A DNA stretch of 57,615 nucleotides from a virus. The stretch spans positions 1 through 57,615 of the IMG/VR virus record IMGVR_UViG_3300045988_146331, one strand, 5' to 3'. The notes under the pieces are model-generated. The model was given only the letters and a program-made list of their open reading frames with translations. It was not told the origin of the DNA and ran no database searches. Positions 3,922-57,615 of the stretch are shown piece by piece; the stretch's first letter is position 1; each line of letters begins with the position of its first letter. Both the position numbers and the translations under genes were made by a program.

Positions 3922-4313
3922 TGTCGTTCGTTCCTTTTAATACATACACAATCTTTTTCCAAATCAAGATATCCTTTTGATTTAAATAAAAGCCTTGCTG
4001 AGTCCCATGTTATACAATATTGCCCCAAAACATCACTTTTAATGAAAATCAATATTTCATTATTACCTTTTGTTCTAAAATTATCAAGCTCATCTCTTTT
4101 ATGTCGTAAGCCACTATTTTCAAAGTACAACTTAGTGTTTTTAGTATGCTTTGCTTCAATGCAAATTGCTTTATTATTACGTATTGCAATAATATCAAAT
4201 ACTGTACCTGCAATGTCGGTCGATAATTTAAAAGTACAATATCCTTGTTTAGAATAGTTTTCCATTATCTCTTGTTCCCAAGATTTACCAATCTTATATT
4301 GTTGAAGTCCCAT
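3918..4313 (-). CDS. Hjc/archaeal-type Holliday-junction-resolvase-like PD-(D/E)XK nuclease
   Basis: GKSWEQEI...FDIIAI...IEAKHT pattern (D...E-x-K). Confidence 0.65.
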   Translation of the reverse strand: MGLQQYKIGKSWEQEIMENYSKQGYCTFKLSTDIAGTVFDIIAIRNNKAICIEAKHTKNTKLYFENSGLRHKRDELDNFRTKGNNEILIFIKSDVLGQYCITWDSARLLFKSKGYLDLEKDCVCIKRNERH

Positions 4314-4441
4314 TCTACCACACTTTCATTTGTGATATTATTTTGATATTCTTAGAATATTTGCATTTTCTTTGAAAAGCATCAAATTCATAACTAGGTA
4401 TATCTTTTTCAAATATCTTATTTGTTCTCAAATCTTTAATT

Positions 4442-4693
4442 CTACAATGATACATTTTTCTTCATCTCCAATACTTTTTTATTATAATCGTCCATTATAT
4501 CAAACGAAATTCCTAATGATTTGTTAAGCATTGATTTAGTCTTAACTTGTAATGGTCTAAATGGCTTTTTTTCATTTAGAAATTCAATTAACCAACCATG
4601 TGGTATACCTTTTGCTGTAGAAAAACCTCTAATACTTAAACCACTTTCATATAGTATACGTTTGATTTCTTTGTATAATTCAGTATCAATCAT
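4442..4693 (-). CDS. Small HTH-like DNA-binding protein; first gene after promoter 4716-4744
   Basis: ORF track; the LSIRGFSTAKGIPHGWL segment resembles a helix-turn-helix. Confidence 0.5.
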   Translation of the reverse strand: MIDTELYKEIKRILYESGLSIRGFSTAKGIPHGWLIEFLNEKKPFRPLQVKTKSMLNKSLGISFDIMDDYNKKVLEMKKNVSL

Positions 4694-5339: not shown

Positions 5340-5413
5340 TGGCACGTTCTTAAGGATTTGAACCCTAATTGATGGTTCTGGAGACCATAGTCCTACCATT
5401 GAACGAAGAACGC
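5340..5413 (-). tRNA. tRNA-Trp (anticodon CCA), CCA end encoded
   Basis: GCGTTCT-TC-GTTC-AATGGTA-GGAC-T-ATGGT-CTCCAGA-ACCAT-CAAT-TAGGG-TTCAAAT-CCTTA-AGAACGT-G-CCA folds as a cloverleaf. Confidence 0.85.
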
Positions 5414-5477
5414 ATTAAATGTCTACTCTATGCTACTTAATAATAGCACGATATACAACTTTGCTTGATATAATCAT

Positions 5478-5506
5478 ATTATATCATAACTTTTCTTTTT
5501 TGTCAT
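5478..5506 (-). promoter_or_regulatory. Promoter of the tRNA operon (ATGACA-17-TGaTATAAT)
   Basis: Minus strand reads ATGACAaaaaagaaaagttatgaTATAAT. Confidence 0.65.
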
Positions 5507-5839: not shown

Positions 5840-6199
5840 TTATCCTCCTATTCTATAACTACTAGCTTTAAATTGCTCTCTAGTCAATACTTCTTCGATA
5901 TCATCACTACTACAATATTCTCCGTCATAACATGTTGTCCATATTCTATCATGTTCTTTATCAATCTTAGTTATTTGTCCACATAAATTATTGGTAACTA
6001 CTACATCACCTACTTCAAGTAAGTCAATTATGTTATAACTGGCTTTAACTACATCATCATCACCAATAAACATAACATCTTTTAAATAATTTGCTTCAAC
6101 TCCATATTTCATATTTGGTTCTCGATAATCATTAATATTTATTATCTTACATATATAACCACTTTTTAATCTAGCAAATTGTCCAACTTCTAATTTCAT
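5840..6199 (-). CDS. Hypothetical protein
   Basis: ORF track; ATG overlaps the stop of upstream reading frame 6196-6411 (ATGA). Confidence 0.6.
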   Translation of the reverse strand: MKLEVGQFARLKSGYICKIININDYREPNMKYGVEANYLKDVMFIGDDDVVKASYNIIDLLEVGDVVVTNNLCGQITKIDKEHDRIWTTCYDGEYCSSDDIEEVLTREQFKASSYRIGG

Positions 6200-17990: not shown

Positions 17991-19052
17991 TTATTCTTTG
18001 TTTTCGTTATTTACCAAATGGGTAATTTCTTCTTCAGGATCTTCTAATGGTTCACCTAAGATATTTAATAGTACTTCCGCTCTTATACCAAATTCACTAT
18101 CTCGTCCTGTTTTCATATAGCTTTCACCTTTATAATCATACCCATTATAAATCATAGATTGTATAGCGGTTATTACTCTCTTAACCTTATATGTATCGTC
18201 ATCTTTTACTTCCACTGTAGATTTTACAATACCTAGTTGTAATTGAACTATAAATGAATACCTAATTAAGGATGCCACCCATGAATTTAACCAATCCAAT
18301 GTTTCTTTATCTGTTGTTTCAGGTTGATGTTCTTTTATATACTTATCCACAATATTACTAATTAGCGTAACACCTGCATTAGCCATTGTTCTTGCAGATA
18401 CTAAAGATAACACACCTTTTTTTATATCTATCAAATATTCACGTGTATATTCATCAAACACATAACATTCTTCTAAAGGCTTTCCCTCAATTAAATATTT
18501 GCCTGCAAACTCTGCTAATCGTAAGATATGATGTAATTGTTTTGGATCATATCCATATTTTTCAATTTTATCAACTATTGTTGGATAAGGATGTTCTAAG
18601 GCTTTTTCTTTTTCTAGTGCCATACCTTTTATACATCTTGCAAATTGATTTTTATTAATATTCGCAATCTTATCACGATTATTTATCAAAGCTTCTATAT
18701 AATCTTCATATTCTGGGTTAACAATTTTATATTTTGTATATAAAAGCTCAACATAAGATATATTTGATTTCAATAACGTTTCTTTCATAACTCTTATATC
18801 TTTTACGTCAATATGTTCATTATTATCCATTACAATTGTTGTTGATACAGCTTGTTTATTCAACACAACATCATCAATAGATGGTAACACAATGGCTTTT
18901 GCATCAATATCGCTTTTATAATCGTCATCATATATATCTAATTGATAATTTTGGCTGCCTTGTAAAAACAAGGCACACACATCATATCCTTTATTTACAA
19001 GATAATCATATTTCTCTTGTAAATTATCCATTATAAATTTATCTCTATCCAT
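17991..19052 (-). CDS. Pol-beta-superfamily nucleotidyltransferase-like protein, partner of the RNA-repair enzyme (likely start MDRDKF at 19052)
   Basis: ORF track 17991..19079. AAGGAGA RBS before ATG 19052. LFLQGSQNY...SDIDAKAIV resembles the G-S...D-x-D nucleotidyltransferase signature. Confidence 0.55.
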   Translation of the reverse strand: MDRDKFIMDNLQEKYDYLVNKGYDVCALFLQGSQNYQLDIYDDDYKSDIDAKAIVLPSIDDVVLNKQAVSTTIVMDNNEHIDVKDIRVMKETLLKSNISYVELLYTKYKIVNPEYEDYIEALINNRDKIANINKNQFARCIKGMALEKEKALEHPYPTIVDKIEKYGYDPKQLHHILRLAEFAGKYLIEGKPLEECYVFDEYTREYLIDIKKGVLSLVSARTMANAGVTLISNIVDKYIKEHQPETTDKETLDWLNSWVASLIRYSFIVQLQLGIVKSTVEVKDDDTYKVKRVITAIQSMIYNGYDYKGESYMKTGRDSEFGIRAEVLLNILGEPLEDPEEEITHLVNNENKE

Positions 19053-21225
19053 TTTCATTCTCCTTATAAAATTGTTCACGCAAAGTAATTATATCTTTGC
19101 TTAATGTTTCTTCACTTTGTTTTTTAGCCCACGCATAGAAATAATTTGCCGTAGCATTGTATAATCTTGCTAAATCAGGACGACTACCATGACGAACTTG
19201 TTCCTTTACTCTTCGCATTAATTTCCAGAAATTATAGTAAGGAAATTTTAATTTTGTCATTATTCCATTACATTCAATAACAACACCTTCAATATCCTCT
19301 TTTGATAAATCATTTTCATTCGTATTTTCTAGATACCATCTATGGAAATCTCTTACATTATTAAATGATTTATAAATATGTTTACATTCACAACCAATGC
19401 TTTTCGCAAGTTTTACAACTTCTTCATATGGTTCTCTTTCAAAATCATATTTGTTATGAATAATATCTAATAATACAATTTTTGGTTCCGTATATTTAAT
19501 AATATGTGGATCTCTTTCTGGGTCAATTACTTCAAACGTTAATGATACATTATTTGCTTGTAAATAATTAACTAATTTTTCTTTATCTATTTTACTATTC
19601 GTAAATATTTCCTTAAATATGTCTGCAAATGGTCCTGTATTCGTTGATTTACTTGCTAAGAACAATTCACTATTTACCATCGACATAATACCTAAGAACC
19701 CATTTTCTTTTTTATAACAAACTATATTCCCTTGGTCTTTAAATTTGACTAATAAATGCTCTAGTTCAACTTCACGACGTTCATTAACATTAAAGAATTT
19801 TTCATAACCTCTTGCAACTACTTCGTCTTTAATTGTATCTACAAATAACCCTCTTGCTTTACATGTATATTCATTCCAATGCTTATTATAGAACGCATGG
19901 TTTGTGAAATTGAATGAACTAATATTATTACCCAATTCCGTTTCTTTAATGTCTCTGCTACCCCTTAATGCCTCTAAAACAGGGATATTTAATTTGGTAC
20001 GGCATTCTTGATATTGATTTACTTCTTCAGGTGTATCGAAATAATCATTTTGTATTGTTACTACATGTAATGACTCATTTTTTGATAATTGAAGAACTTT
20101 TAATTTTCCACCAAATTCAACTTTACCTTCTAAATTAACTGATTTACTGTTTTTAGAAATACCAACATCAAATGTATTGCGATGTCCGTGAACTTGAATA
20201 ACATCCGTATCTTTCATATTTTCGTCAAATATTTCGTCAATATCAACATTATAATCACCAACGCCATTTATAAGTTGATCTGTTGCAACTAACTGTAATT
20301 CGGTTGGTAAATAACTTATACCACCATGTGAACAAATGTATCTGTGCCCATCATATGTAAAGTATGCGACTTGTCCTATTTTTCGATAGAATGAGCGAAT
20401 ATCACTTTTTTCAATATCCATTATTTCCATCATAGTTTTATGAAGGAAAGTTTTTGAATGAATATTTTCTAATTCGTCAATTGCATAATAATGTAACCAT
20501 TTCTCATGATTTCCCTCTAACATTAAAACATTACTTTTTTTAGCCATATCCATCAAGAATAACAATGTTTCTTTATTCTGCAAACCTCTATCTAAATAAT
20601 CACCACAGAAGATATAAAATTCATTTTCGCTATATGGGTATTCTTCAAAATATTTTTTCAAAGGATTATAACAACCATGAACATCTCCAAAAATATTGAT
20701 TCTATCGTATTTATTCATGTCGAACAATTTCATACCAATTTGTTCCCAAAACTTATCTCGATCAATTTTAACCCAACCACTCGTTTTATCTTGAGTTCTT
20801 AAACGAGAATACATTTTATCAATGACTTCTTCTGGTACTCTTTTATAATCTTCTCTTTGAGCATTTCTTTCTTTACAAACTTCAATTGGAATATCACTAA
20901 AATCAACATAATACCTACGATATCTATATCTTTCGCATAATTTATTATATCTACTAAAATCACTAGAACGACTATGAGTAGCGTCAATAACAACGAACTC
21001 TCCTCTTGCCATTCTTTTATCTAATAATTCAAATAACAATTGCCATACATAACTATCATTTTTTTGACTAATTGTTCTATACGTTTTATCCGGAACAATC
21101 ATAGGACTTTGTACTAAAAGTCTAATTGTATCTGCACATAACGTATATTGTTCTAACCCCATTTTTTTAATCCAAGTAGATTTTCCACTACCTGGACTTC
21201 CTCTTAAAATTACTAATGTTCTCAT
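19045..21225 (-). CDS. Trifunctional Pnkp-like RNA repair enzyme: polynucleotide kinase + metallophosphatase + ATP-dependent RNA ligase
   Basis: P-loop GSPGSGKST. Calcineurin-like motifs GDVHGC, GDYLDRG, GNHE. Ligase motif I KKENGFLG in the C-terminal third. Confidence 0.8.
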   Translation of the reverse strand: MRTLVILRGSPGSGKSTWIKKMGLEQYTLCADTIRLLVQSPMIVPDKTYRTISQKNDSYVWQLLFELLDKRMARGEFVVIDATHSRSSDFSRYNKLCERYRYRRYYVDFSDIPIEVCKERNAQREDYKRVPEEVIDKMYSRLRTQDKTSGWVKIDRDKFWEQIGMKLFDMNKYDRINIFGDVHGCYNPLKKYFEEYPYSENEFYIFCGDYLDRGLQNKETLLFLMDMAKKSNVLMLEGNHEKWLHYYAIDELENIHSKTFLHKTMMEIMDIEKSDIRSFYRKIGQVAYFTYDGHRYICSHGGISYLPTELQLVATDQLINGVGDYNVDIDEIFDENMKDTDVIQVHGHRNTFDVGISKNSKSVNLEGKVEFGGKLKVLQLSKNESLHVVTIQNDYFDTPEEVNQYQECRTKLNIPVLEALRGSRDIKETELGNNISSFNFTNHAFYNKHWNEYTCKARGLFVDTIKDEVVARGYEKFFNVNERREVELEHLLVKFKDQGNIVCYKKENGFLGIMSMVNSELFLASKSTNTGPFADIFKEIFTNSKIDKEKLVNYLQANNVSLTFEVIDPERDPHIIKYTEPKIVLLDIIHNKYDFEREPYEEVVKLAKSIGCECKHIYKSFNNVRDFHRWYLENTNENDLSKEDIEGVVIECNGIMTKLKFPYYNFWKLMRRVKEQVRHGSRPDLARLYNATANYFYAWAKKQSEETLSKDIITLREQFYKENENG

Positions 21226-24234: not shown

Positions 24235-24933
24235 ATGGATAATAAATCAAATAGAAGTACAATTTGTTTTAATGTTCCTTCTGGTGGTGGTAGATTTACT
24301 AAAACTAAAGAAGAACGTAAAGAAGATAGTATTAATGCGTTATTAAAAAATGAACCTACTAGAAAAGAACTCGATAACGCTAATAAGTCTTCTATCAAAC
24401 AAGTAAATGCAACGGGTTTTTTTGCTGAACCTAATGCGAAAAATTGGTCTAATAAAATGGTTACCCATGCTCTTAATAATATGTCTAAAAAACAAAAGGG
24501 TAGGGGGGTATTTGATAGTGTTGAAGAACTTGCTACTGAATTTGAAGAATATGTTCATATTGCTCAAGATACAGGTTTAGCTCCAACTGTAGCTTCTTTA
24601 GCTTTTTATCTAGGAGTTTCTAGAGATACCATTTATTCTCATGCTAGAAATTCAATGTCTCCTTTTCATGATATTTGTATGTTAATGATTGATTATTGTC
24701 ATGCAATGTTAGAAACAGGAGCAACTATGAATAAACTTAATTCGGTATCTTATATCTTTCAAGCTAAGAATTATTTTGGTATGAAAGATCAAACTGATGT
24801 TGTTGTTGGTGCTCAAGAGAGAACTAATATTAATAATTCACAAAGTATTCAAGCACTAAAAGACCAGATATCTAAAGAAGATAAAATTATTGATGCTAAA
24901 GATTTTAAATTAGTTGATAAGGACGAGGGCTAG
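24235..24933 (+). CDS. terS: Terminase small subunit
   Basis: The segment ...TGLAPTVASLAFYLGVSRDTIYSHARNS... (HTH) is typical of Terminase_2-type small subunits; lies upstream of terL. Confidence 0.75.
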   Translation: MDNKSNRSTICFNVPSGGGRFTKTKEERKEDSINALLKNEPTRKELDNANKSSIKQVNATGFFAEPNAKNWSNKMVTHALNNMSKKQKGRGVFDSVEELATEFEEYVHIAQDTGLAPTVASLAFYLGVSRDTIYSHARNSMSPFHDICMLMIDYCHAMLETGATMNKLNSVSYIFQAKNYFGMKDQTDVVVGAQERTNINNSQSIQALKDQISKEDKIIDAKDFKLVDKDEG

Positions 24934-25258: not shown

Positions 25259-25756
25259 CTACTTTAACAAGTAGCATATCCAAATTATTATTAAGTAAAA
25301 TAGCATTAAGCATATAATAATTTTTGGAATGAATAGCCAATCAATCGGCTTGTTATTCGCTTTGGTGATTTCTTTAATTTCTTCTATTTCTTCATTTTCT
25401 GATATCTTATCATCTCGTTTTCTAAATTTAACCCACTTTTCAAAATTTGAATAGAATGACATGTTAACATCATATTCTATGTTGAAATCTTGAAAATGTT
25501 GTACTGTAAATCCCCCGTCAAGTATTTCTAGCCCGTCATCGTATACTAGTTTTATGATTCGATCCATGTAATTTATTCTGTCATGATATAATTTGTCATA
25601 ATTACTATATTTATCCGCTAAACTATCTAATATCGAAAAAGTACAACTAGTTATTGATCTAGTGTATTTCTCTTTTAATTTGCTTTGTGTTATTTTTTGA
25701 TTTTGAGAAGACGCAAGCTGCCTGCTTACGTTCTCAACGCTATTAATTAAGCCCAT
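25259..25756 (-). CDS. C-terminally membrane-anchored hypothetical protein (island gene)
   Basis: ORF track; C-terminal TM helix IPKIIICLMLFYLIIIWICYLL. Confidence 0.6.
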   Translation of the reverse strand: MGLINSVENVSRQLASSQNQKITQSKLKEKYTRSITSCTFSILDSLADKYSNYDKLYHDRINYMDRIIKLVYDDGLEILDGGFTVQHFQDFNIEYDVNMSFYSNFEKWVKFRKRDDKISENEEIEEIKEITKANNKPIDWLFIPKIIICLMLFYLIIIWICYLLK

Positions 25757-25995
25757 TATTTAACGACACTTTCTAAAACTTCAAGATAAGCGGACATAAT
25801 AACTTCTAAATATTTTGGCGTGTAGTCTTCAAGATTAAATATACTATCTTCTAAAACGTCATCATTTTCAAACCTCCAGCCGTATATCTCATCGTTTTGA
25901 TTTAGTTTTTTAAGATCTTGATATTTTGCCATGTAATTTTTATTTGATTTAACTTTTTTTCTTAAAGCTTGTAATTTTTGGTATTTTTCGCGCAT
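25756..25995 (-). CDS. Hypothetical protein (island gene)
   Basis: ORF track; 1-nt overlap. Confidence 0.55.
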   Translation of the reverse strand: MREKYQKLQALRKKVKSNKNYMAKYQDLKKLNQNDEIYGWRFENDDVLEDSIFNLEDYTPKYLEVIMSAYLEVLESVVK

Positions 25996-25996
25996 A

Positions 25997-26392
25997 TTAT
26001 AGAACCCCCTTATCTACTAAATACTTTTTATATTCTTTTAGTCCTTTGATCGTGTTTGTTTTGAAATCATGCTTTATTTCAAAGAATCTAGATTTTTTAT
26101 ATTTGTTTAGCTCTTCTAAATAATTGGCAATTTTTTTGTCACTTGCATTGTAGAGCGTTTCCGTTTCTTCTACTTCTTGAAAATAACCTTTTAGCCCTCT
26201 ATGTAGACAACGTCTTGTAAAGATAGTTACTCTTCGATAACCTTCTATTTCTTTCTTTTTGTTTTCGATTTGTTGCAATTTTCTTTGGGTTTCTTCAAGT
26301 TGTTTATTTAGCTTATTTAGAGCTTTAAGCTCAACCCATCTTTTGTTGTCTTTTAATTCATTTTTTAAATTTTCTATAGTTTCGTTTTTCAT
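25997..26392 (-). CDS. Coiled-coil hypothetical protein (island gene)
   Basis: ORF track; Lys/Glu-rich heptads. Confidence 0.6.
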   Translation of the reverse strand: MKNETIENLKNELKDNKRWVELKALNKLNKQLEETQRKLQQIENKKKEIEGYRRVTIFTRRCLHRGLKGYFQEVEETETLYNASDKKIANYLEELNKYKKSRFFEIKHDFKTNTIKGLKEYKKYLVDKGVL

Positions 26393-26415
26393 TTTCTTTC
26401 TTCTTTCTTCTTTCT

Positions 26416-26433
26416 ATTTTTTTTTTTTTTTTT
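26416..26433. repeat. T18 homopolymer (A18 on the coding strand), starting inside the TAA stop of 26432..26698
   Basis: Counted directly: t at 26416-26433. Confidence 0.9.
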
Positions 26434-26698
26434 AATTTTCGTTATCAATCAATTGATCTAAGCTTCGATATCCAGTCCTAGCATAGATTACATCGTTTAA
26501 GGTTTCGACTGAATAACCATTAATACATGTTATTAATTCTAATTCCTCTTCAGTTGCAATCTCGCTTTCTACTAGATAATCCCAAATTTTTTCAATTTCA
26601 TTTTCTTTCATTTTTTCTTTTCCTCTTTCCTTATTTTCTAAATATATTTTATCATATATTGTCACATTTATCAACACTTTTTTGTTATTTTTCATCAT
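26432..26698 (-). CDS. Acidic hypothetical protein (island gene)
   Basis: ORF track. Confidence 0.55.
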   Translation of the reverse strand: MMKNNKKVLINVTIYDKIYLENKERGKEKMKENEIEKIWDYLVESEIATEEELELITCINGYSVETLNDVIYARTGYRSLDQLIDNEN

Positions 26699-26867
26699 CT
26701 TTTGTAATATTTGTATAGTTTAATATAATATAACTATTGATTGTTATTAGTACCATTAGACCAATCATGATCGCTAAGTTCTCTGTCGATGCAAATAGTA
26801 CGATGCTGATTGCTAAGATTATTTCTAATAACCTTTCAACCCATTTCTTTAATATCATTTTTATCAT
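26685..26867 (-). CDS. Small membrane protein (first island gene)
   Basis: ORF track; two hydrophobic helices; downstream of promoter 26890-26918. Confidence 0.5.
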   Translation of the reverse strand: MIKMILKKWVERLLEIILAISIVLFASTENLAIMIGLMVLITINSYIILNYTNITKDDEK

Positions 26868-26889
26868 TCCTTTCTTACTTTACAAATAT

Positions 26890-26918
26890 ATTATATCAAA
26901 TCATTATATATTTGTCAA
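26890..26918 (-). promoter_or_regulatory. Consensus promoter TTGACA-17-TATAAT driving the island genes
   Basis: Minus strand reads TTGACAaatatataatgatttgaTATAAT. Confidence 0.8.
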
Positions 26919-26981
26919 CAATTTTTTATTATTTTTATTAAAAATTTAATGCAAATTTTTTACAGTTATTTTGGTAGTTTC

Positions 26982-27053
26982 CCTACTCCAAAACTTCAAA
27001 GGGTGCCCTCTGGGGGTGCACGGGATCCGCCCCCCAGTCGCCAAAGGAGTAGG
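26982..27053. other. GC-rich nested hairpin element in an otherwise AT-rich intergenic region
   Basis: CCTACTCC (26982-26989) pairs with GGAGTAGG (27046-27053); the inner stem is CTGGGGG (27010-27016) / CCCCCAG (27031-27037). Confidence 0.6.
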
Positions 27054-27090
27054 TCTAGCAAAATTTTTATAAAAAATACCTTTTTTCAAC

Positions 27091-27119
27091 TTGACAATCA
27101 CTATCATCTATGTTATACT
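27091..27119 (+). promoter_or_regulatory. Promoter TTGACA-17-TATACT of the large ncRNA/tRNA transcript
   Basis: TTGACAatcactatcatctatgtTATACT. Confidence 0.8.
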
Positions 27120-27125
27120 TATCAA

Positions 27126-27690
27126 GAACCAGTTGACAAATATCAATACAATGATAGCTGGATTTATCATTACCTCTGTAATTAGAGTGCAGATTTTAAT
27201 GGTTAGAGGTGTTACTTTGTGTAAACTAGTAATATAGTATGGAGTGATACGAAAATGATAAAGTGGTGCAATAATAGAGATTAAAAACATCTACAGATCC
27301 GCATGAACTATGAAAGCTAATGTTTTCAGCCTAGAAATAGTAAAGGCATTATGTGAGTAATCTAGTCTTTATACTTCCCTGACAAGAAGAGTAATGGCTA
27401 GACGTCAAGGAAATGTTATGTCGTTGAACCTAGTAATAGGGTATAAGGAGTATGTAGAGTACAAGTAGCGGAAATCGACGTTTTAAGTTTTCAAAAAGGC
27501 AAATGATTTTAAATAATCAAATAAATGTATAAATAATAGGTTCTTATGTCCGTGAAAGTTTGTAGTCATCGTGCTATGCCACAAAAAATCGGCAAGGTAT
27601 ATCCAAGGTCGCTCCTTGGGGAAGAACCTTGTTAGTGGTGGTTGAATATAATTGTTATTATTGCATTAGGGAGAAATCCCCAATTTTATT
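27126..27690 (+). ncRNA. Candidate large (~565 nt) structured non-coding RNA co-transcribed with a tRNA (ROOL/GOLLD-like context)
   Basis: No plausible ORF on the transcribed strand; locally higher GC. Helices: 27172-27177/27205-27210, 27538-27545/27622-27629, 27603-27608/27614-27619. GNRA hairpin GGGA-GAAA-TCCC at 27669-27680. No terminator before the tRNA. Confidence 0.6.
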
Positions 27691-27765
27691 GGCTACATGA
27701 TCCAAAGGTTACGATGCTGGACTGTCTATCCAGAAATTAGAGTTCGATTCTCTATGTGGCCGCCA
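27691..27765 (+). tRNA. tRNA-Asp (anticodon GTC), CCA encoded; unusual U at position 37
   Basis: GGCTACA-TG-ATC..GAT-G-CTGGA-CTGTCTA-TCCAG-AAAT-TAGAG-TTCGATT-CTCTA-TGTGGCC-G-CCA. Confidence 0.75.
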
Positions 27766-27774
27766 TTTTTAAAT

Positions 27775-27803
27775 TTGACAATAATAGGATATTGTGATAT
27801 AAT
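27775..27803 (+). promoter_or_regulatory. Consensus promoter TTGACA-17-TATAAT
   Basis: TTGACAataataggatattgtgaTATAAT. Confidence 0.75.
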
Positions 27804-27809
27804 AATTGG

Positions 27810-27876
27810 GTATATGAAGTATCATATATAACCCATACACATATCCCATTCCCAGGCGAGAAATCGCCTTTTTTTG
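27810..27876 (+). ncRNA. Candidate ~65-nt small RNA (hairpin + terminator)
   Basis: Lies between promoter 27775-27803 and terminator 27854-27876; GGGTATAT...ATATAACCC hairpin; no ORF. Confidence 0.4.
27854..27876 (+). terminator. Intrinsic terminator (GAAA tetraloop)
   Basis: AGGCGAgaaaTCGCCTttttttt. Confidence 0.8.
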
Positions 27877-27899
27877 TTGGTTATATATTTTACATTTTA

Positions 27900-27928
27900 T
27901 TGACATTTGTTTATAGATATGGTACAAT
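27900..27928 (+). promoter_or_regulatory. Promoter TTGACA-17-TACAAT in front of the terL operon
   Basis: TTGACAtttgtttatagatatggTACAAT. The ORF-track start of 27900..28229 is actually the -35 box. Confidence 0.75.
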
Positions 27929-27959
27929 GAGTATAGGTAGGATAACGATAGGAGAAAAT

Positions 27960-28229
27960 ATGTTAGATAAAATAGATTTATTTGGAGAAGATATGTTGTT
28001 TGCGACATTTGATGAATTTTATCAAATGAGAACACATATAAGAGAAAAATTAAACACTGCTACATATGATTATAAACGTGTATATCGTATGTATGTACAT
28101 TCAAGACCATTTATACCTGGCAAGTATATTGGATTTATCTGGGACTATTTAAATGGCTATATGGACGACCCTGGACTTGGACGAGAATTTAGATTGTATC
28201 GTGAGAGTAAGGAGAAAAAGAGAAAATGA
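27960..28229 (+). CDS. Hypothetical protein upstream of terL (start MLDKIDLF)
   Basis: In-frame ATG at 27960 preceded by GGAGAAAAT; 4-nt overlap with terL. Confidence 0.6.
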   Translation: MLDKIDLFGEDMLFATFDEFYQMRTHIREKLNTATYDYKRVYRMYVHSRPFIPGKYIGFIWDYLNGYMDDPGLGREFRLYRESKEKKRK

Positions 28230-29995
28230 TAAATGACACATTACCAGAAGAAACATTAAGATTAATGCAAAAACGTATTGAAGAAGAGCTTGAATTAATT
28301 AAGCAAGCCAAGAATAAATCAACAAAAGCGTATATCTCGGTAATGGACAGTTTAAAATACCATTATGAATATATTGGTGATATTGAAAATGCGAATAAAA
28401 TCGCAATAGAGTTGTTGAATATTCTAGAAAATGGGAAAACCGAGTTAAAAGATAATGAATTAGGTAGTTATTTAGTTAGTTGTTATGATACTAGGGCGAG
28501 AGCTGGGGATTTTGAATCTTTCATGATTGCCTTGGAATGGAATAGGCCAATTGAAAAACAATTTTATTTACCAAGAAGAAAGATATTAAAGAAATTCGGT
28601 GTCGTGCAAGCATTCCAAGATGTTGCAGACGGAAAAGTTGATTTTTTGTGTGTAAATATGCCACCTAGAACTGGAAAATCAACATTAGGATTATTTTTCT
28701 TATTGTTCATGGCTTGTTTATATCCAGAACGTTCAATATTGGGAAATGGTCATAGTGCAAGTTTAACACAATCGTTCTATAATGAGATTTTAAATATGTT
28801 AACGAATGACGAGTATCGTATTTCGGCAATATTCCCTAAAATCAATATTGTTAATAAAAGTAGTGAATATTCATATATTGATTTGAATACTGTCAAGAGA
28901 TTCCATACGTTAATGTTTAAAAGTGTAGATGGTGGTACAACTGGTCTTGCAGAAGCAAGTAACATATTATACTGCGATGACCTTGTAAAAGACGTTGAGA
29001 CAGCGAATAACATAGATAGATTGGATAAACTATTCTATACCTATACAAGTACCATCCAAGATAGAAAAGTTCAAAGAAAGGGCAAAGATGGAGTTTATAG
29101 ACCATGCCCAGAGATACACATTAATACGCCTTGGAGTATCCATGACGTTACAAGTAGATTAATCCAAATTTATGGTGATGACGGGAATAACCCAAGAGTT
29201 AGAATAATTTCAGTGCCTTGCTATGATGAAAATGGGGAAAGCAATTTCATGTATGACTATGGTAAGGGGTTCAGTAAAGAATATTATCATCAGTTGGAAA
29301 TGAGTGAAGATCCTGTTATATTCAGTGCCAAGTATTTAATGAAACCAATTGAACGTGATGGTAGGCCGTTTACGCAAGATCAACTTAGTTTTTATTATGA
29401 AAAACCGGATACTGAACCAGATTGTGTTTGTGCGTATGCGGATGTTGCGCATGGTGGGGAAGATTATTTTTCAATGCCTATTGCGTATGTTTATGGTCAA
29501 GAAGTATACATCGAAGATGTTGTATTCGTTAATAAAATGGGTGATGACGAAACTCGTCCTTTAGTACGTGATAAGATAATCCAGCATCGTGTTACAAGAG
29601 CAGGGTTTGAAGAAAACAATGGTGGTAAACCTTATGCGGATTTGGTTAATATCGACTTGAAAATGAAAAATTATCATGCGAATATTACGACACATAAAGC
29701 ACGTAGTAATCGTAGTAAGCTAGATAGAATAATGTCTCGTCAAAATGACATTAAAGGCGTTGCAACAGAATACGGAACATTTAAAATATATTTTAAAGCG
29801 GAAAGTGTTAGAAAAGATAATAAGCAATATAATGATTTTATGCGTAATCTTTATAATTGGTCGAGTAAGCAAGGAGCGGTTCAAAGAACTCAACATGATG
29901 ATGCACCGGATAGTCTTGCAGGATTACTTACGAATGTGTTAGATAATTATGGTGTCGGTAAGGCAAAAACAATAAATGCAAGCAAATATTTGTAA
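28226..29995 (+). CDS. terL: Terminase large subunit
   Basis: Walker A NMPPRTGKST, Walker B LYCDDL, C-terminal nuclease domain with DDAPDS. Confidence 0.9.
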   Translation: MINDTLPEETLRLMQKRIEEELELIKQAKNKSTKAYISVMDSLKYHYEYIGDIENANKIAIELLNILENGKTELKDNELGSYLVSCYDTRARAGDFESFMIALEWNRPIEKQFYLPRRKILKKFGVVQAFQDVADGKVDFLCVNMPPRTGKSTLGLFFLLFMACLYPERSILGNGHSASLTQSFYNEILNMLTNDEYRISAIFPKINIVNKSSEYSYIDLNTVKRFHTLMFKSVDGGTTGLAEASNILYCDDLVKDVETANNIDRLDKLFYTYTSTIQDRKVQRKGKDGVYRPCPEIHINTPWSIHDVTSRLIQIYGDDGNNPRVRIISVPCYDENGESNFMYDYGKGFSKEYYHQLEMSEDPVIFSAKYLMKPIERDGRPFTQDQLSFYYEKPDTEPDCVCAYADVAHGGEDYFSMPIAYVYGQEVYIEDVVFVNKMGDDETRPLVRDKIIQHRVTRAGFEENNGGKPYADLVNIDLKMKNYHANITTHKARSNRSKLDRIMSRQNDIKGVATEYGTFKIYFKAESVRKDNKQYNDFMRNLYNWSSKQGAVQRTQHDDAPDSLAGLLTNVLDNYGVGKAKTINASKYL

Positions 29996-30059: not shown

Positions 30060-31592
30060 ATGGTGATGAGATTGAACGATGCAAACAAGATTGTATCTAT
30101 GTTAGAACCCGAATTACATCGTGGTCGACAAAAGATAATTCTAGATTATGATTACGTAGATAAGTCTAATGTTTTAGAAGTCTTAAGTAAAGCATTACCA
30201 TATCATGGAAAAAACGCTCAAGATTGTCAGTATTTGATTGATTATTATCTTGGGAAGCAAACCATATTAAATCGTCCAGAGCCAGAGACATCACATATAA
30301 ACAATAAAACAGTTGTGAATCATGCATTCCCTACAACAAGACAAATCACAGGATATACATTAGGCAATCCTGTTGAATTAGTGCAAAAGAATGTTGATAA
30401 AGCGCAAGATGTATCAACCATTGGGGATATTTATGACAATGTTGGGGCGTTTGCTACCGATACCAATACGTTAACATATATGAGTATATGTGGCATAGCA
30501 TATCAAATCACTTTGCCGAGTGAAGATATATCGAAAGATAATATTCCAGATATGCCAATTACTTATAAAGAGTTAGATCCACGTGATACGTTCTGCGTTT
30601 ATTCGTCAAAAATGAATAACAAGAAAATCATGTCATGTAACATTATTCATACTGAGAATGATGGCAAAATTTATATTGTTTATACAGATGATTATGTATT
30701 CACAATAAATGGCACGGATAAGACAATTGACGAAGTAGTTGATAACGTAATAGGTGTGAACCCAATTTCTATGTTTGAAAATTCATTATTTATGACAGGA
30801 GATTGGGAACCAGCAATTAGTGTAATGGACGCTATAAATATTGTAGCTAGTGATTCGTTAAATGACATTGAAAACACTATACGAAGTCTGTTGGTATTAG
30901 TTGGTACGGAACTTGAAGATGACGAAACAAGCTTAAAGACAATCAAGCAAAATAGATTGTTGACTGTGGTAGGTAATCAAGGTGCTAATGCGGATGCAAA
31001 ATTTATCTCGCCAAGTGTTGATAGTGCTAGTTTAGAAGCTATTAGAGAATGGTTGGAAGATAAATTAAGAATTATCACAGGTATTCCAGATAGGCAAACT
31101 GCAAGTGGTGGAGATACTGGTACTGCCGTTTTAAATAGAAATGGCTGGACAGATATTGAAATAGTTGCCAAACTAAAAGAATTATTCTTTAAAAAAGGCA
31201 AAAGAGAACAATTAGATGTTGCGATAAGAATATTAAAATTATTGAATTTAATCAGTCAAGATACAAAAGCAATGGATATTAATATTACAATTGGTAGACA
31301 TACAACAGACAACTTACAATCGAAAGCACAGGCGTTTAGTACATTAGTTGGTACTGGTGAGTTGGCAACAATAGATTGTTTAGAAATGAGTGGGTTAACT
31401 ACTCGTATAAATGAAGTAATTGCGCGTGGTGAACAAGCTAAGGCTGAAAAAGAAGCCCAAGCACTTGTTGAAGCTAGTGTAGAAGCTAGTATGAATAATG
31501 CTAGTGAGAATACGGATACAAACGTTAAGAATGATGGCATGAACGAATACAATAAAAATAAGCAAAAAGTAGATGAAAATGCCACCGCTTAA
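30060..31592 (+). CDS. Portal protein (SPP1 gp6-like)
   Basis: 510 aa directly after terL; acidic/Ala-rich C-terminal tail. Confidence 0.8.
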   Translation: MVMRLNDANKIVSMLEPELHRGRQKIILDYDYVDKSNVLEVLSKALPYHGKNAQDCQYLIDYYLGKQTILNRPEPETSHINNKTVVNHAFPTTRQITGYTLGNPVELVQKNVDKAQDVSTIGDIYDNVGAFATDTNTLTYMSICGIAYQITLPSEDISKDNIPDMPITYKELDPRDTFCVYSSKMNNKKIMSCNIIHTENDGKIYIVYTDDYVFTINGTDKTIDEVVDNVIGVNPISMFENSLFMTGDWEPAISVMDAINIVASDSLNDIENTIRSLLVLVGTELEDDETSLKTIKQNRLLTVVGNQGANADAKFISPSVDSASLEAIREWLEDKLRIITGIPDRQTASGGDTGTAVLNRNGWTDIEIVAKLKELFFKKGKREQLDVAIRILKLLNLISQDTKAMDINITIGRHTTDNLQSKAQAFSTLVGTGELATIDCLEMSGLTTRINEVIARGEQAKAEKEAQALVEASVEASMNNASENTDTNVKNDGMNEYNKNKQKVDENATA

Positions 31593-32715: not shown

Positions 32716-33759
32716 ATGAAAACATCTTTATTTGATTTTTTATCCGCAAGTAATATAGTTGCTTATTGGATTGAAAAAAATGTAAACACTCAACCATATC
32801 TTGGTGAAACTTTATTCCCTAACAAAAAGGAAATAGGTATCAACATTGAGTGGATCAAGGGCGCATACGATCAACCAATTGAATTAAAACTAAGTGCATA
32901 CGATAGTAAATCTACTCGTAGAAATAGACCAGGCTTAGAGAAATTCATTACAGAAATGCCATTTTTCAAAGAATCAATGTATGTTGATGAAAAAATGCGT
33001 CAACAATTGAATACATTAATGCAAACTAACAACCAAGCATTAATTAATCAAATACTTAGTAAAATATTTGATGACCAAATTACTTTAATTAACGCTGCTA
33101 GAATTTCATTAGAAAGAATGAGAATGGAAGTGTTAACTACTGGTAAACTAGAACTAGAAAGCAATGGTCAAAAGTATTCATATGATTATGGTCTAGAAGA
33201 AAATCAAATTAAGACAGTTACTACTGACTGGGGAAATCCAACAACTGACATCATTAATGATTTAATAGAGTTCAAAGAACTTATGAAATCAAAAGGTGTT
33301 ACAATTACAAGAGGTGTTTGTAATAGTTCTGTAGCTAAAGACATAAGAAAGAACGAAGGTATTAAAAATTCTATTTATGTATTAGCAGGTGGATCTATTA
33401 AGAGTATTTCAACTGAAAGAGCATTACAATACATTTATGACGAAACTGGTATTGAAATTTATGTTTACGATAATGTTTACGTAAATGATGAAAATAAAGC
33501 CGTTAAATATATTGCTGATGACACATTAGTATTGTTACCAGATGGTGTATTAGGTGCTACACATTTAGGTACGACACCAGAAGAAAGTGATTTAATTAGT
33601 TCTAATTATGCAAATGTTGCAATAGTAGACACAGGTATTGCTGTAACAACTTATGGTACAACGGATCCTGTAAATGTAGAGGAGAAAGTATCAATGGTTG
33701 GTTTACCATCATTTGAACGTGCTAACGAGATAATGATTATTGATACTAACGGCGTATAA
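32716..33759 (+). CDS. Major capsid protein (lambda gpE-like family)
   Basis: 347 aa; the N-terminus (SLFDFLSASNIVAYW...PYLGETLFP) is typical of capsid protein E-family members; module position. Confidence 0.75.
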   Translation: MKTSLFDFLSASNIVAYWIEKNVNTQPYLGETLFPNKKEIGINIEWIKGAYDQPIELKLSAYDSKSTRRNRPGLEKFITEMPFFKESMYVDEKMRQQLNTLMQTNNQALINQILSKIFDDQITLINAARISLERMRMEVLTTGKLELESNGQKYSYDYGLEENQIKTVTTDWGNPTTDIINDLIEFKELMKSKGVTITRGVCNSSVAKDIRKNEGIKNSIYVLAGGSIKSISTERALQYIYDETGIEIYVYDNVYVNDENKAVKYIADDTLVLLPDGVLGATHLGTTPEESDLISSNYANVAIVDTGIAVTTYGTTDPVNVEEKVSMVGLPSFERANEIMIIDTNGV

Positions 33760-50410: not shown

Positions 50411-50486
50411 TGGACGATAGAGTGAGATTTGAACTCACGTATAATGGTGTTGCAGACCATTCCCTTAACCACTTGGGTATCTACCG
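50411..50486 (-). tRNA. tRNA-Cys (anticodon GCA), CCA encoded
   Basis: CGGTAGA-TA-CCC..GGG-A-ATGGT-CTGCAAC-ACCAT-TATAC-GTGAG-TTCAAAT-CTCAC-TCTATCG-T-CCA. Confidence 0.8.
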
Positions 50487-50514
50487 TATAAAGAAAGATA
50501 AATCTTTCCTTTTA

Positions 50515-50543
50515 ATTATAAAATACAATTGGTTATTTGTCAA
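50515..50543 (-). promoter_or_regulatory. Consensus promoter TTGACA-17-TATAAT upstream of tRNA-Cys
   Basis: Minus strand reads TTGACAaataaccaattgtatttTATAAT. Confidence 0.75.
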
Positions 50544-56791: not shown

Positions 56792-57592
56792 TTATTCTAC
56801 ACCTTTTTCTTTCAATTCAATACCATTTTCTTGTAGTTTTATTTGTATCTTAATTTTTAATGCTAATAATTCAGAGGTCGTATGTTCATTTTCGACAACA
56901 TCTATCATAGTTGCCTTTCCATAATCATCACCAAGCTTATCTCTCAACGCCCATATTCCTTCGATAATATACTTTTTAAATTCCTCGTTTGTTTTTTCGT
57001 CGTATTGAACGTCATTTACGACTTTTTCAATTACATCTTTTTTAGTATCCTTTGGAATATATGCTGGAACTTTTGGTTCAGCACTAGCCGCTGTTTCTAC
57101 AGCATTTTGATTATCATCCCAGTCAAATCTATTTTTTGGTGAAAAATTAAATTTGAACCAGTTTCTAAACGCCAATGTACATGCACTACTTACACTTTTA
57201 TCCATTGTATCGCTTCCACTTGCAATCATCATATAATGTTTTTCATAACCAGTATCAATATCAGTAAGTGTTGCACGACAACGAACTGTTGATAAATGCT
57301 TTGGTGCGCCAACGGATGGTGTTAAGATATTCTTTTCAAATCTAAGTTCTTCAATTGGTTGAAAATCAAAATCTAGCCCACATTCAATACATAATTCTTG
57401 AACAGCATTATAATATTGACCAATTGAATGATACTCTTCACCACCTAAATTTGAAGTCATTGCTTTATCTAATACGAATTGTTTTTCTTGGATTAGTCGT
57501 CTAAGTTTATCTATTTTATGTAATAATTTTACTTTATCGTTATTAGTTTCTACTATTTTAGTTTCTGTTATGTTATTTTCTTTTTTTGCCAT
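56792..57592 (-). CDS. ERF-family single-strand annealing protein (own SD AAGGAGA + ATG 57592)
   Basis: YHSIGQYYNAVQELCIECGL... and ...GSDTMDKSVSSACTLAFRNWFKFNF resemble the ERF core; paired with the YqaJ exonuclease. Confidence 0.65.
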   Translation of the reverse strand: MAKKENNITETKIVETNNDKVKLLHKIDKLRRLIQEKQFVLDKAMTSNLGGEEYHSIGQYYNAVQELCIECGLDFDFQPIEELRFEKNILTPSVGAPKHLSTVRCRATLTDIDTGYEKHYMMIASGSDTMDKSVSSACTLAFRNWFKFNFSPKNRFDWDDNQNAVETAASAEPKVPAYIPKDTKKDVIEKVVNDVQYDEKTNEEFKKYIIEGIWALRDKLGDDYGKATMIDVVENEHTTSELLALKIKIQIKLQENGIELKEKGVE

Positions 57593-57615
57593 ATTAATTA
57601 AATCTCCTTTTTCTT
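57561..57615. repeat. Second copy of the 55-bp terminal overlap
   Basis: Identical to nt 1-55. Confidence 0.97.

Follow-up and report, generated by a model that had tools for sequence, protein, structure and literature searches.

The plus strand between positions 27126 and 27690 of the window (the whole 57,615-nt stretch of phage DNA analyzed here) constitutes a gene for a ROOL RNA, belonging as a new member to a class of large noncoding phage RNAs that is already known (Rfam RF03087; Weinberg et al. 2017, PMC5737381). The RNA retains the entire ROOL core, that is, the multi-stem domains, the pseudoknot, the variable linker and the invariant GGUCGCUCC loop, as established by homology and covariation. 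It represents a minor architectural variant of the family, being devoid of the closing helix P1 and directly followed by a tRNA-Asp gene. We place high confidence in the reading laid out below as a whole, which comprises a P1-less ROOL gene, its expression, its structure and its predicted self-assembly into a cage.

Identification of the ROOL gene

The Rfam covariance model RF03087 aligned from end to end with the plus strand at 27105-27700 (untruncated; model positions 1-574 of 574; E value of 1.8e-25). The match scored 125.4 bits, the gathering score being 99.1, and rescanning a 1.1-kb slice (26850-27950) against Rfam returned the identical ROOL score of 125.4 bits. A previous sequence-only reading of this locus had suspected a large RNA of the ROOL or GOLLD class, or else of a new one. 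The model settles the class as ROOL, at full length and above threshold, and as this class is already known, the option of a new class falls away. GOLLD, OLE, HEARO and raiA yielded no match at gathering score in the window and none at an E value of ≤1 on 26850-27950, where the Rfam scan revealed ROOL and tRNA only. GOLLD resembles the present RNA in that it is a large, ornate RNA of phages and prophages found near tRNA genes and forms an RNA-only cage, and some of its members carry a tRNA inside the RNA (PMC12990946); however, its sequence and fold are unrelated.

The ROOL RNA proper would extend over approximately 565 nt, from the predicted transcription start at 27126 to the predicted RNase P cut at 27690, compared with a family mean of 581 nt; the Rfam span is wider because the model forces the P1 helix onto the flanks. 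The folding of the single sequence gave a z score of −3.6. The score of 125 bits is low for the phage group, being the second lowest among its ROOLs, whereas canonical relatives reach 133-196 bits. This is due partly to P1 and partly to the deletion of one small hairpin of the 3′ domain (model positions ~446-462) and a 39-nt insert in the central domain, all three of which set this RNA apart from the family. Among the related copies, L001, which is nearly identical to the RNA of the window, scored 127.9 bits and the more diverged L002 scored 110.7 bits. The elements of the locus are as follows.

27091-27119, plus strand: sigma-70-type promoter with an extended −10 region (TTGACA at 27091-27096, 17-nt spacer, TATACT at 27114-27119; 11/12 matches)
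27129-27161, plus strand: first 5′ hairpin, P2 of the model (stems 27129-27133/27157-27161 and 27141-27145/27152-27156; 10/10 pairs canonical)
27163-27262, plus strand: 5′ three-hairpin domain, closed by 27163-27168/27257-27262 (33/37 model pairs canonical)
27173-27188/27193-27209, 27210-27220/27225-27234 and 27237-27241/27246-27250, plus strand: hairpins inside the 5′ domain
27268-27288, plus strand: 5′ strand of the long-range helix, pairing with 27642-27663 and 27681 (13/16 model pairs canonical)
27290-27458, plus strand: central domain (helices 27290-27300/27447-27458 and 27301-27306/27413-27416)
27474-27540, plus strand: variable AU-rich linker, closed by the stem 27468-27473/27548-27553 and aligned to the unstructured loop/insert of the model
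27541-27545 (UUCUU) with 27622-27626 (AAGAA), plus strand: pseudoknot, its 3′ strand located in the internal loop that separates the last two stacked helices
27553-27562, plus strand: conserved CGUGAAAGUU motif opening the 3′ domain (GTGAAA invariant in the alignment of relatives)
27590-27635, plus strand: stacked hairpin (27590-27599/27626-27635 plus 27602-27608/27614-27620; 15/18 model pairs canonical)
27669-27680, plus strand: last hairpin, GGGA-GAAA-UCCC with a GNRA tetraloop (4/4 pairs canonical)
27691-27765, plus strand: tRNA-Asp (GUC) with encoded CCA (ARAGORN; Rfam tRNA, 55 bits; cloverleaf fold)
27854-27877, plus strand: first downstream intrinsic terminator (AGGCGA-GAAA-TCGCCT followed by T7)

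A search of 27091-27770 by blastn ('distant' mode) against 50,697 GenBank phage records gave no match, indicating that this phage is not among the deposited phages and that its relatives are found only in IMG/VR. In that collection, a two-motif pattern scan anchored on CGUGAAAGUU located more than 120 ROOL-like sites. It should be noted that the default Infernal filters dropped the ROOL of L002 in large searches ('gathering' mode, 11 loci) whereas a slice search finds it, and since this RNA lies above the threshold, P1-less ROOLs are probably undercounted. A scan in 'evalue' mode of the window together with L003 omitted even the 125-bit match of the window, a false negative of the filter.

The predicted ROOL-tRNA transcription unit

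The consensus promoter reported upon first reading of the sequence is indeed present, and a TG at 27111-27112 makes it an extended −10 promoter (TGtTATACT). Sites with at least 11 of 12 promoter matches were more frequent in the genome than in shuffled sequences (16 versus 5.2 ± 2.0). TG-extended sites with a 17-nt spacer precede terS, the ROOL gene, an 89-amino-acid open reading frame (ORF) with terL, and the portal gene; on the minus strand, TG-extended sites lie upstream of the leftward operon and of tRNA-Trp, while tRNA-Cys has a 12/12 site without TG. The ROOL promoter is conserved in L001, and L002 carries TTGACA-18-TGtTATAAT approximately 15 nt before the first ROOL helix.

The tRNA seen at 27691-27765 proved to be tRNA-Asp, and it begins 10 nt past the last ROOL hairpin. 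Between 27119 and 27854 we found no terminator-like site, which bears out the absence of a terminator ahead of the tRNA; the primary ROOL-tRNA transcript probably ends at the terminator at 27854-27877. Judging by these sequence signals, the host sigma-70-type machinery would start a transcript at around 27126 (±2), 1 nt ahead of the first helix of ROOL, and this transcript would span the ~565-nt ROOL and the abutting tRNA-Asp up to approximately 27877. Since no terminator precedes 27854-27877, the 3′ end of ROOL would be cut out by RNase P, and a single cleavage at 27690/27691 would generate both ends at once, the 3′ end of ROOL and the 5′ end of the tRNA. A candidate small RNA after the tRNA was also considered, and the complementarity search gave a single AT-rich 14-mer.

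The longest plus-strand ORF lying wholly within 27126-27690 encodes 29 amino acids, two TTG-start ORFs of 32 and 48 amino acids overlap the ends of the RNA, and the minus strand carries an ORF of 60 amino acids. In the alignment with the L002 homologue, the gap lengths are not multiples of three. A protein-coding reading was rejected because the ORFs are short and the gaps break the frame; the description of the region as free of credible ORFs thus holds, and there was no sign of a conserved small protein encoded here, the alternative that had been named. The claim of noticeably higher GC content held in part: the RNA is enriched (33.8% versus 29.5% for the genome, with a standard deviation of 3.1% over 565-nt windows) and ranks in the top 5% of windows, but the enrichment is modest.

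Conservation of the core

In the core of the RNA, 117 of the 129 model pairs (91%) are canonical, and the conserved motifs GUGAAAGUU, GGUCGCUCC, GUAUAAG, GUACAAGUAGC and UGAAUA are all present, the first four being invariant features of the family. The RNA also has in common with the family its multi-stem domains, pseudoknot, variable linker and GNRA-capped last hairpin, as well as its phage context beside a tRNA. Covariation was strong. Of the cells in an alignment of 15 related phage ROOLs, 72.8% were paired, compared with 42-46% when the partners were slid, and 98 pairs exhibited changes on both sides, compared with 49-67 in the slid controls; none of 500 shuffles reached the observed values. 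Between the window and L002, whose terL is 70% identical, 28 pairs were kept through changes on both sides. All seven substitutions that distinguish the RNA from that of L001 fall at unpaired positions, six of them within the linker at 27474-27540. Homologues with compensatory changes, which the sequence-only reading had proposed to look for, therefore exist.

The same 15 sequences supported the individual helices. The P2 hairpin (helices 2-4) was paired in 96-100% of cells with changes on both sides. In the 5′ domain, compensatory changes relative to L002 were found at 27175/27207, 27176/27206 and other pairs, and the ACCTCT/AGAGGT helix spotted by eye corresponds to the model helix 27173-27188/27193-27209. 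The long-range helix starting at 27268-27288 (helix 11; 94% of cells paired) closes the central and 3′ domains and, P1 being absent, is the outermost helix here. The central domain (helices 15 and 19, paired in 81% and 97% of cells, with changes on both sides) encloses the 39-nt variable insert at 27317-27355, a hairpin at 27361-27377/27386-27402 and a GUAA-capped hairpin at 27429-27440, and the conserved GUAUAAG follows directly after it. In the solved ROOL structures, the counterpart of the linker is disordered and sits inside the cage (PMC12286853).

Within the stacked hairpin, the conserved loop in GGUCGCUCC (27607-27615) is invariant, while all 7 of 7 stem pairs covary; the CCAAGG-tcgct-CCTTGG hairpin recognized previously is this model hairpin. 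From a mapping of the helix numbers, we infer that it equals L18 of Kretsch et al., which forms a symmetric kissing loop between chains; the conservation and role of L18 have been described for ROOL (PMC12286853). The GNRA-capped GGGA-GAAA-TCCC hairpin is likewise the last hairpin of the ROOL model, and its equivalent in L002, UUUG-GAAA-CAAG, carries compensatory changes.

The pseudoknot sites covary across dozens of ROOLs (UCUGA/UCAGA, GCUGA/UCAGC, GUGA/UCAC, GACG/CGUC, UCGCA/UGCGA and GCCU/AGGC), and in L002 the two strands read UCCU/AGGA, one U-A pair having become C-G through a double change. A pseudoknot joining the linker flank to J17/18 has been mentioned for ROOL (PMC12286853). The 8-bp helix AGGTTCTT/AAGAACCT proposed earlier lies outside the nested Rfam structure and stood only in its inner 5 bp, which are the family pseudoknot; the outer 3 bp overlap the helix 27590-27599/27626-27635 and are gone in the 97%-identical L001.

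Loss of P1, the attached tRNA and the genomic setting

In contrast to the core, the P1 pairing of this RNA is at about the level of chance, 7 of the 16 model pairs being canonical. With L001 and L002 included, the count is 7-8 of 16, compared with 13-16 in 12 relatives. A gap-free stem search recovered, as the best stem between the flanks of the RNA, a 10-bp helix in the wrong place, whereas the same search detected a P1 of 19-31 bp in at least approximately 78 of 93 ROOL regions from IMG/VR, a lower bound given that it missed P1 of L103 and L154 (332 bits). RNAduplex applied to long flanks produced sprawling, uninterpretable duplexes, and the gap-free search was used instead. The places of the two P1 strands are taken by the promoter on the 5′ side and by tRNA-Asp on the 3′ side. 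Since the model threshold was passed without P1, we treat this helix as a variable peripheral feature, whose absence does not disqualify the RNA from the class.

The canonical ROOLs of the group (L007, L008, L012, L047, L030, L112, L100 and others) belong to phages of the same terL family (55-63% identity), lie beside terL as in the window, and either have their own promoter or directly follow a tRNA. Their core helices align and covary with those of the window, but they possess a P1 of 16-30 bp (5′ UUCUUUGACAA... / ...UUGUCAAAGAA 3′), which the clade of the window lacks. The P1-less layout abutting a tRNA was also found in L002, with tRNA-Met, and in a separate group comprising L094, L099 and L114, with tRNA-Gln. 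A search for further members of the sub-clade by GTTGAACCTAGTNATAGGGTATAAG in viral and metagenome contigs returned only contigs already known, plus the canonical, P1-bearing L177. None of the solved ROOLs that we checked is without P1.

Few natural RNAs have been shown to assemble into a closed cage without protein, and ROOL is one of them. Cryo-EM structures have been reported for the env-120, Efa, Firm and Lsa RNAs (PMC12286853, PMC12515178, PMC12990946), which form octamers in the case of Efa and env-120 and hexamers in the case of Lsa (PMC12286853, PMC12990946, PMC12515178). By analogy with these relatives, the present RNA would self-assemble, protein-free, as a closed homo-oligomeric cage. 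The stoichiometry can shift with minor differences in secondary structure (PMC12990946), a caution for the predicted cage of a P1-less variant. An engineered ROOL with a 3′-fused tRNA precursor (Ling et al., as summarized in PMC12515178) is reported still to form octamers, with radial display of the cargo. As P1 is not named among the listed bridges between chains and 3′-fused cargo is reportedly displayed radially, the loss of P1 should be tolerated. Like the present locus, the construct of Ling et al. places ROOL and a tRNA precursor in one transcript; however, it is artificial and, judging by that summary, apparently keeps the native ROOL ends, whereas the junction in the window is natural and P1 is missing.

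Speculatively, the cage could serve as an abundant phage-made RNA compartment or sponge tied to tRNA and translation supply, being co-expressed with tRNA-Asp. ROOLs are common in viral contigs, as the single motif scan illustrates, and this copy in itself adds little to the catalogue. It is nevertheless a convenient specimen, with a complete small phage genome, a clean near-consensus promoter, a predicted 5′ end only 1 nt from the first helix, a 3′ end set by a tRNA, and no P1. As a natural minimal construct, it lends itself to asking if cages can assemble without P1 and if the tRNA linkage is functional.

A stronger reading, which we regard as unlikely, takes the P1-less form abutting a tRNA to be a natural ROOL architecture in its own right, with a biologically meaningful tRNA link and with ends set by transcription and tRNA processing instead of a closing helix: by the promoter start and RNase P in the window or, in the L094 group, by tRNA 3′ processing and RNase P. 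If so, each cage might, for example, present or release eight tRNA precursors, coupling assembly to the tRNA supply of the phage. Such an RNA would be the natural counterpart of the engineered ROOL-3′-tRNA fusions and would offer a first experimental handle on ROOL function.

It is less probable still that ROOL acts here mainly as a long structured 5′ leader of tRNA-Asp, controlling its maturation or supply and holding the tRNA on or in the assembly until release, instead of being an RNA in its own right that only happens to be transcribed together with the tRNA. The 10-nt distance to the first tRNA nucleotide, the lack of a P1 that would insulate the ends, and the recurrence of tRNA abutment in L002 and the L094 group are all consistent with this view, as are the 'inhibited storage' proposed for the GOLLD-embedded tRNA (PMC12990946) and the octamers with radially displayed cargo reported for the engineered tRNA-precursor fusions (PMC12515178). 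However, approximately 81 of the 93 IMG/VR ROOL regions have no tRNA on the same strand within ~60 nt of the 3′ end, and most of these have an intact P1. Moreover, the attached tRNA varies among relatives (Asp, Met and Gln), so that no specific tRNA is coupled to ROOL; neither of the two remaining phage tRNAs is joined to a ROOL, each being served by a promoter of its own; and RNase P would treat a tRNA that is displayed radially and has a free leader as an ordinary substrate.

We consider it very improbable that the RNA is a decaying, no longer functional ROOL remnant that lost P1 to the insertion of a promoter at one end and a tRNA at the other. The chance-level P1 pairing, the last-but-one score in the phage group and the deleted small hairpin would fit such decay. 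Nevertheless, the core pairs and every invariant motif are kept, the both-side changes relative to L002 and the confinement of all L001 differences to unpaired positions fit the pattern of purifying selection on the structure, and the near-consensus promoter is retained in both this phage and L002. Furthermore, these two phages, though diverged, have the P1-less layout in common, and it is seen again in an unrelated group of tRNA-flanked ROOLs.

The phage genome is complete and circularly assembled (~57.6 kb, with a 55-bp terminal overlap), and downstream of ROOL come terL and the genes for the portal and the major capsid. The 3.3-kb gap between the GP3_package/terS-like gene (24235-24933) and terL (28226-29995) also holds five small minus-strand ORFs, the 89-amino-acid ORF, and a GC-rich element (26976-27060) that had no Rfam match and no copies beyond the phage pair of the window and L001. 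The earlier statement that the locus splits terS from terL thus holds only in a loose sense. In relatives, the slot beside terL is occupied by ROOLs and/or tRNA arrays; it is a place upstream of terL where this phage group generally hosts tRNA or noncoding RNA genes, and no terminase operon is specifically broken up by it.

It is hardly credible that the RNA serves in DNA packaging, as its place between the terS-like gene and terL might suggest, acting as a multimer with the terminase or portal like the phi29 pRNA, the textbook case of a multimeric RNA in phages (cited in PMC12286853). At least seven diverged members of the phage group do carry ROOL within ~0.5-1.4 kb of terL (upstream in the window/L001, L002, L007, L008, L012 and L047, immediately downstream in L030). 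In L019, L020 and L021, however, which share the terL family, the slot is filled by plain tRNA arrays and no ROOL, so that packaging can do without it. ROOL has also been found on bacterial chromosomes and megaplasmids, and L. salivarius can dispense with it (PMC12286853, PMC12990946); its ~28-nm closed cage of D4 or D3 symmetry mismatches a 12-fold portal ring, and the slice matched no Rfam pRNA family.

The source is probably an uncultured gut or rumen phage infecting Firmicutes. When terL was searched against bacterial genomes, the only matches were contigs of 54-59 kb from metagenome-assembled genomes, which are phage genomes binned with Clostridia, Bacilli and Erysipelotrichaceae.

An Rfam match in a packaging-gene locus

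When the full window was scanned with every one of the 4,227 Rfam families, four matches exceeded their gathering scores, namely ROOL (RF03087) and three tRNAs. The ROOL match spanned 27105-27700 (+) and the entire model (positions 1-574 of 574), scoring 125.4 bits (threshold 99.1) with E = 1.8e-25. A repeat search of a 1.1-kb slice under permissive filtering recovered it again and gave no match to GOLLD, OLE, HEARO, raiA or pRNA at E <= 1. ROOL RNAs were described by Weinberg et al. in 2017 as approximately 581 nt long, with six multistem junctions and pseudoknots; they occur in phages and prophages, among other settings, and frequently adjoin tRNAs (PMC5737381). The window RNA, proposed from the sequence alone to be of the ROOL or GOLLD class, belongs to an already known class, ROOL. 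Its sequence had no match among GenBank phages, and its sole near-twin is metagenomic.

The window has an exact 55-bp terminal direct repeat (1-55 = 57561-57615), indicating a circular assembly and thus one complete phage genome of ~57.56 kb; its GC content is 29.5%. The locus is arranged as follows.

Features around the ROOL RNA
24235-24933, terS-like gene (Pfam GP3_package)
25259-26867 (-), five small ORFs, transcribed from a consensus promoter at 26918-26890 (-)
26976-27060, GC-rich element of 85 bp, between the five-ORF group and ROOL
27091-27119, ROOL promoter
27126-27690 (+), ROOL RNA
27691-27765, tRNA-Asp, directly after ROOL and followed by a short promoter-terminator unit
27900-27928, third promoter, then an 89-aa ORF at 27960-28229 (+)
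28226-29995, terL
30060-31592, portal gene
32716-33759, major capsid gene

The ROOL promoter was exactly as the sequence-only reading had given it and additionally carries an extended -10 TG. Sites of equal quality number 16 genome-wide versus 5.2 ± 2.0 in shuffles, a threefold excess, and most are intergenic, closely preceding genes, the remaining two tRNAs among them. The same reading had correctly noted that the plus strand lacks a credible ORF (the longest wholly within the RNA has 29 aa) and that no terminator precedes the tRNA, the first terminator-like site being at 27854. The RNA is also richer in GC than its surroundings (33.8%, within the top 5% of windows), although this enrichment is modest.

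Conservation of the fold among related phages

A terL search yielded 49 related viral loci. The closest, L001, is 97% identical over 9.4 kb that span ROOL together with the packaging genes; leftward of this, identity is 88-96%. ROOL scored 127.9 bits in L001, 156 in L007, 193 in L008, 196 in L012, 190 in L047 and 136 in L030. In L002, the ROOL (3990-4565; also in L003) scored 110.7 bits when searched on a slice, which is above the gathering score; it went unreported in a 140-kb gathering-mode search and in a 70-kb evalue-mode search, and the latter also lost the window's own 125-bit match. A negative ROOL result from a large cmscan run therefore cannot be relied on. In related phages (L019, L020, L021, L008 and L002), 4-10 tRNA genes, with or without ROOL, lie 0.3-2.5 kb upstream of terL; L030 is an exception, with ROOL immediately downstream of terL. 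Since in L019, L020 and L021 the slot is occupied by arrays of 6-10 tRNAs without ROOL, it represents a general non-coding RNA island beside terL.

We scored a MAFFT alignment of 15 sequences against the Rfam structure mapped via the window row; this route artificially raises the pairing percentage of the window itself but leaves the counts of covariation unaffected. Paired cells amounted to 72.8%, compared with 42-46% when partners were slid; because the alignment is sequence based and several helices are partly misaligned, the relatives' pairing percentages are underestimated. Changes on both sides occurred at 98 pairs versus 49-67, the covariation score was 0.428 versus 0.11-0.17, and none of 500 shuffles matched the observed values. 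Between the window and L002, both-sided changes preserve pairing at 28 pairs. Between the window and L001, the seven substitutions in the RNA affect 0 of 258 paired and 7 of 307 unpaired nucleotides, with six of the seven in the linker. The single-sequence fold was better than shuffles (z = -3.6). Collectively, these data establish that the window RNA is a family member whose fold is conserved and under selection.

When the Rfam structure was projected onto the window, three of the four helices seen by eye coincided with model helices, while the fourth, AGGTTCTT / AAGAACCT, fell outside the nested structure. The five inner pairs of this helix (27541-27545 with 27622-27626) connect the 3′ linker flank with the internal loop in the last stacked hairpin and constitute the pseudoknot that Kretsch et al. 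mention (PMC12286853); our mapping to the cryo-EM numbers (L18, J17/18, P19) is inferred from order along the sequence. Complementarity between the two sites is maintained family-wide by covariation (UCUGA/UCAGA, GCUGA/UCAGC, GUGA/UCAC, GACG/CGUC, UCGCA/UGCGA, GCCU/AGGC and, in L002, UCCU/AGGA). The three outermost pairs are in competition with a model helix, and even L001 lacks them.

A ROOL form without P1 that abuts a tRNA

P1, the helix normally joining the ROOL ends, had 13-16 of 16 model pairs canonical in 12 canonical relatives and 7-8 of 16, roughly chance, in the window, L001 and L002. A motif scan of IMG/VR (GTGAAAGTT-N35-65-GGTCGCTCC) found at least 120 sites; among the matches listed, about 78 of 93 unique regions with enough flank had an obvious P1 of 19-31 bp, with its 3′ strand starting 66-76 nt past the motif. 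In the window, tRNA-Asp starts at +75, the site of the P1 3′ strand, while the -10 box fills the site of the 5′ strand and the predicted start lies 1 nt ahead of the first inner helix, exactly where homology to L002 begins. L002 has its own promoter (TTGACA-18-TGtTATAAT) just upstream of ROOL and a tRNA-Met at +83. In a different ROOL group of ~160 bits (L094, L099 and L114), tRNAs flank the RNA on both sides, 22 and 9 nt away, and P1 has at most 5 bp; the P1-less arrangement is thus recurrent, yet a minority.

Lacking P1 and abutting a tRNA, this form is a minor architectural variant of ROOL; we found no description of it in the ROOL papers examined, and it may already be reported. The inter-chain bridges listed in the published descriptions do not include P1 (PMC12286853, PMC12990946). 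According to the summary in PMC12515178, Ling et al. found that 3′-fused cargo, including a tRNA precursor, left the octamer intact and pointed outward, which is consistent with P1 being dispensable.

Predicted expression and neighboring elements

Judging from sequence, transcription from the 27091-27119 promoter would start at ~27126, read through into tRNA-Asp and end at the terminator (27854-27877); RNase P cleavage at 27690/27691 would part ROOL from the tRNA. By homology, the RNA would assemble without protein into a cage of six or eight subunits that encloses the AU-rich linker (PMC12286853, PMC12990946); roles put forward in the literature are encapsulation of tRNAs, ribosomes or other macromolecules (PMC12990946). 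We ranked below this cage explanation, in order, a tRNA leader or storage device, a decayed remnant and a packaging RNA.

Ten nt past tRNA-Asp, the region 27775-27878 carries a perfect extended -10 promoter (TTGACA-17-TGaTATAAT, 27775-27803) and two hairpins, the second an intrinsic terminator (27854-27869 plus T7). The region (fold z = -2.8) had no Rfam match and no convincing antisense target, and either encodes a candidate small RNA of ~68 nt or simply terminates the ROOL-tRNA transcript. The 89-aa ORF, which overlaps the terL start codon (ATGA) and had no Pfam or PHROG match, may encode either a small accessory protein for packaging or the actual small terminase partner. The GC-rich element, flanked by the divergent promoters 26918-26890 (-) and 27091-27119 (+), is the genome's GC peak (up to 68% in 60-nt windows versus 29.5% overall) and contains an imperfect hairpin (CCTACTCC...GGAGTAGG flanking GGGGGTGCACGGGATCCGCCCCCC). 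It had no Rfam match and is present solely in this phage and L001, the 97% twin; it may serve as a cos/pac site or bind protein.

Near-consensus promoters also lie directly upstream of tRNA-Trp (region 5340-5506 (-), promoter 5506-5478) and tRNA-Cys (region 50411-50543 (-), promoter 50543-50515), so the three phage tRNAs form separate, scattered transcription units. An RNA-repair cassette (17991-21225 (-)) comprises a 726-aa fusion of polynucleotide kinase, phosphatase and T4-type RNA ligase (19045-21225 (-); phrog_8238, E = 1.5e-216; Pfam AAA_33, Metallophos and RNA_lig_T4_1) and an adjoining 362-aa nucleotidyltransferase (17991-19079 (-)). Together with the three tRNAs and ROOL, the cassette suggests that the phage invests heavily in supplying and repairing tRNAs. 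On another viral contig, of 183 kb and bearing a 332-bit ROOL (L103), an array of more than 25 tRNA genes contains a skipping-rope RNA (RF02924, 43.8 bits) at 5993-6103 (-).
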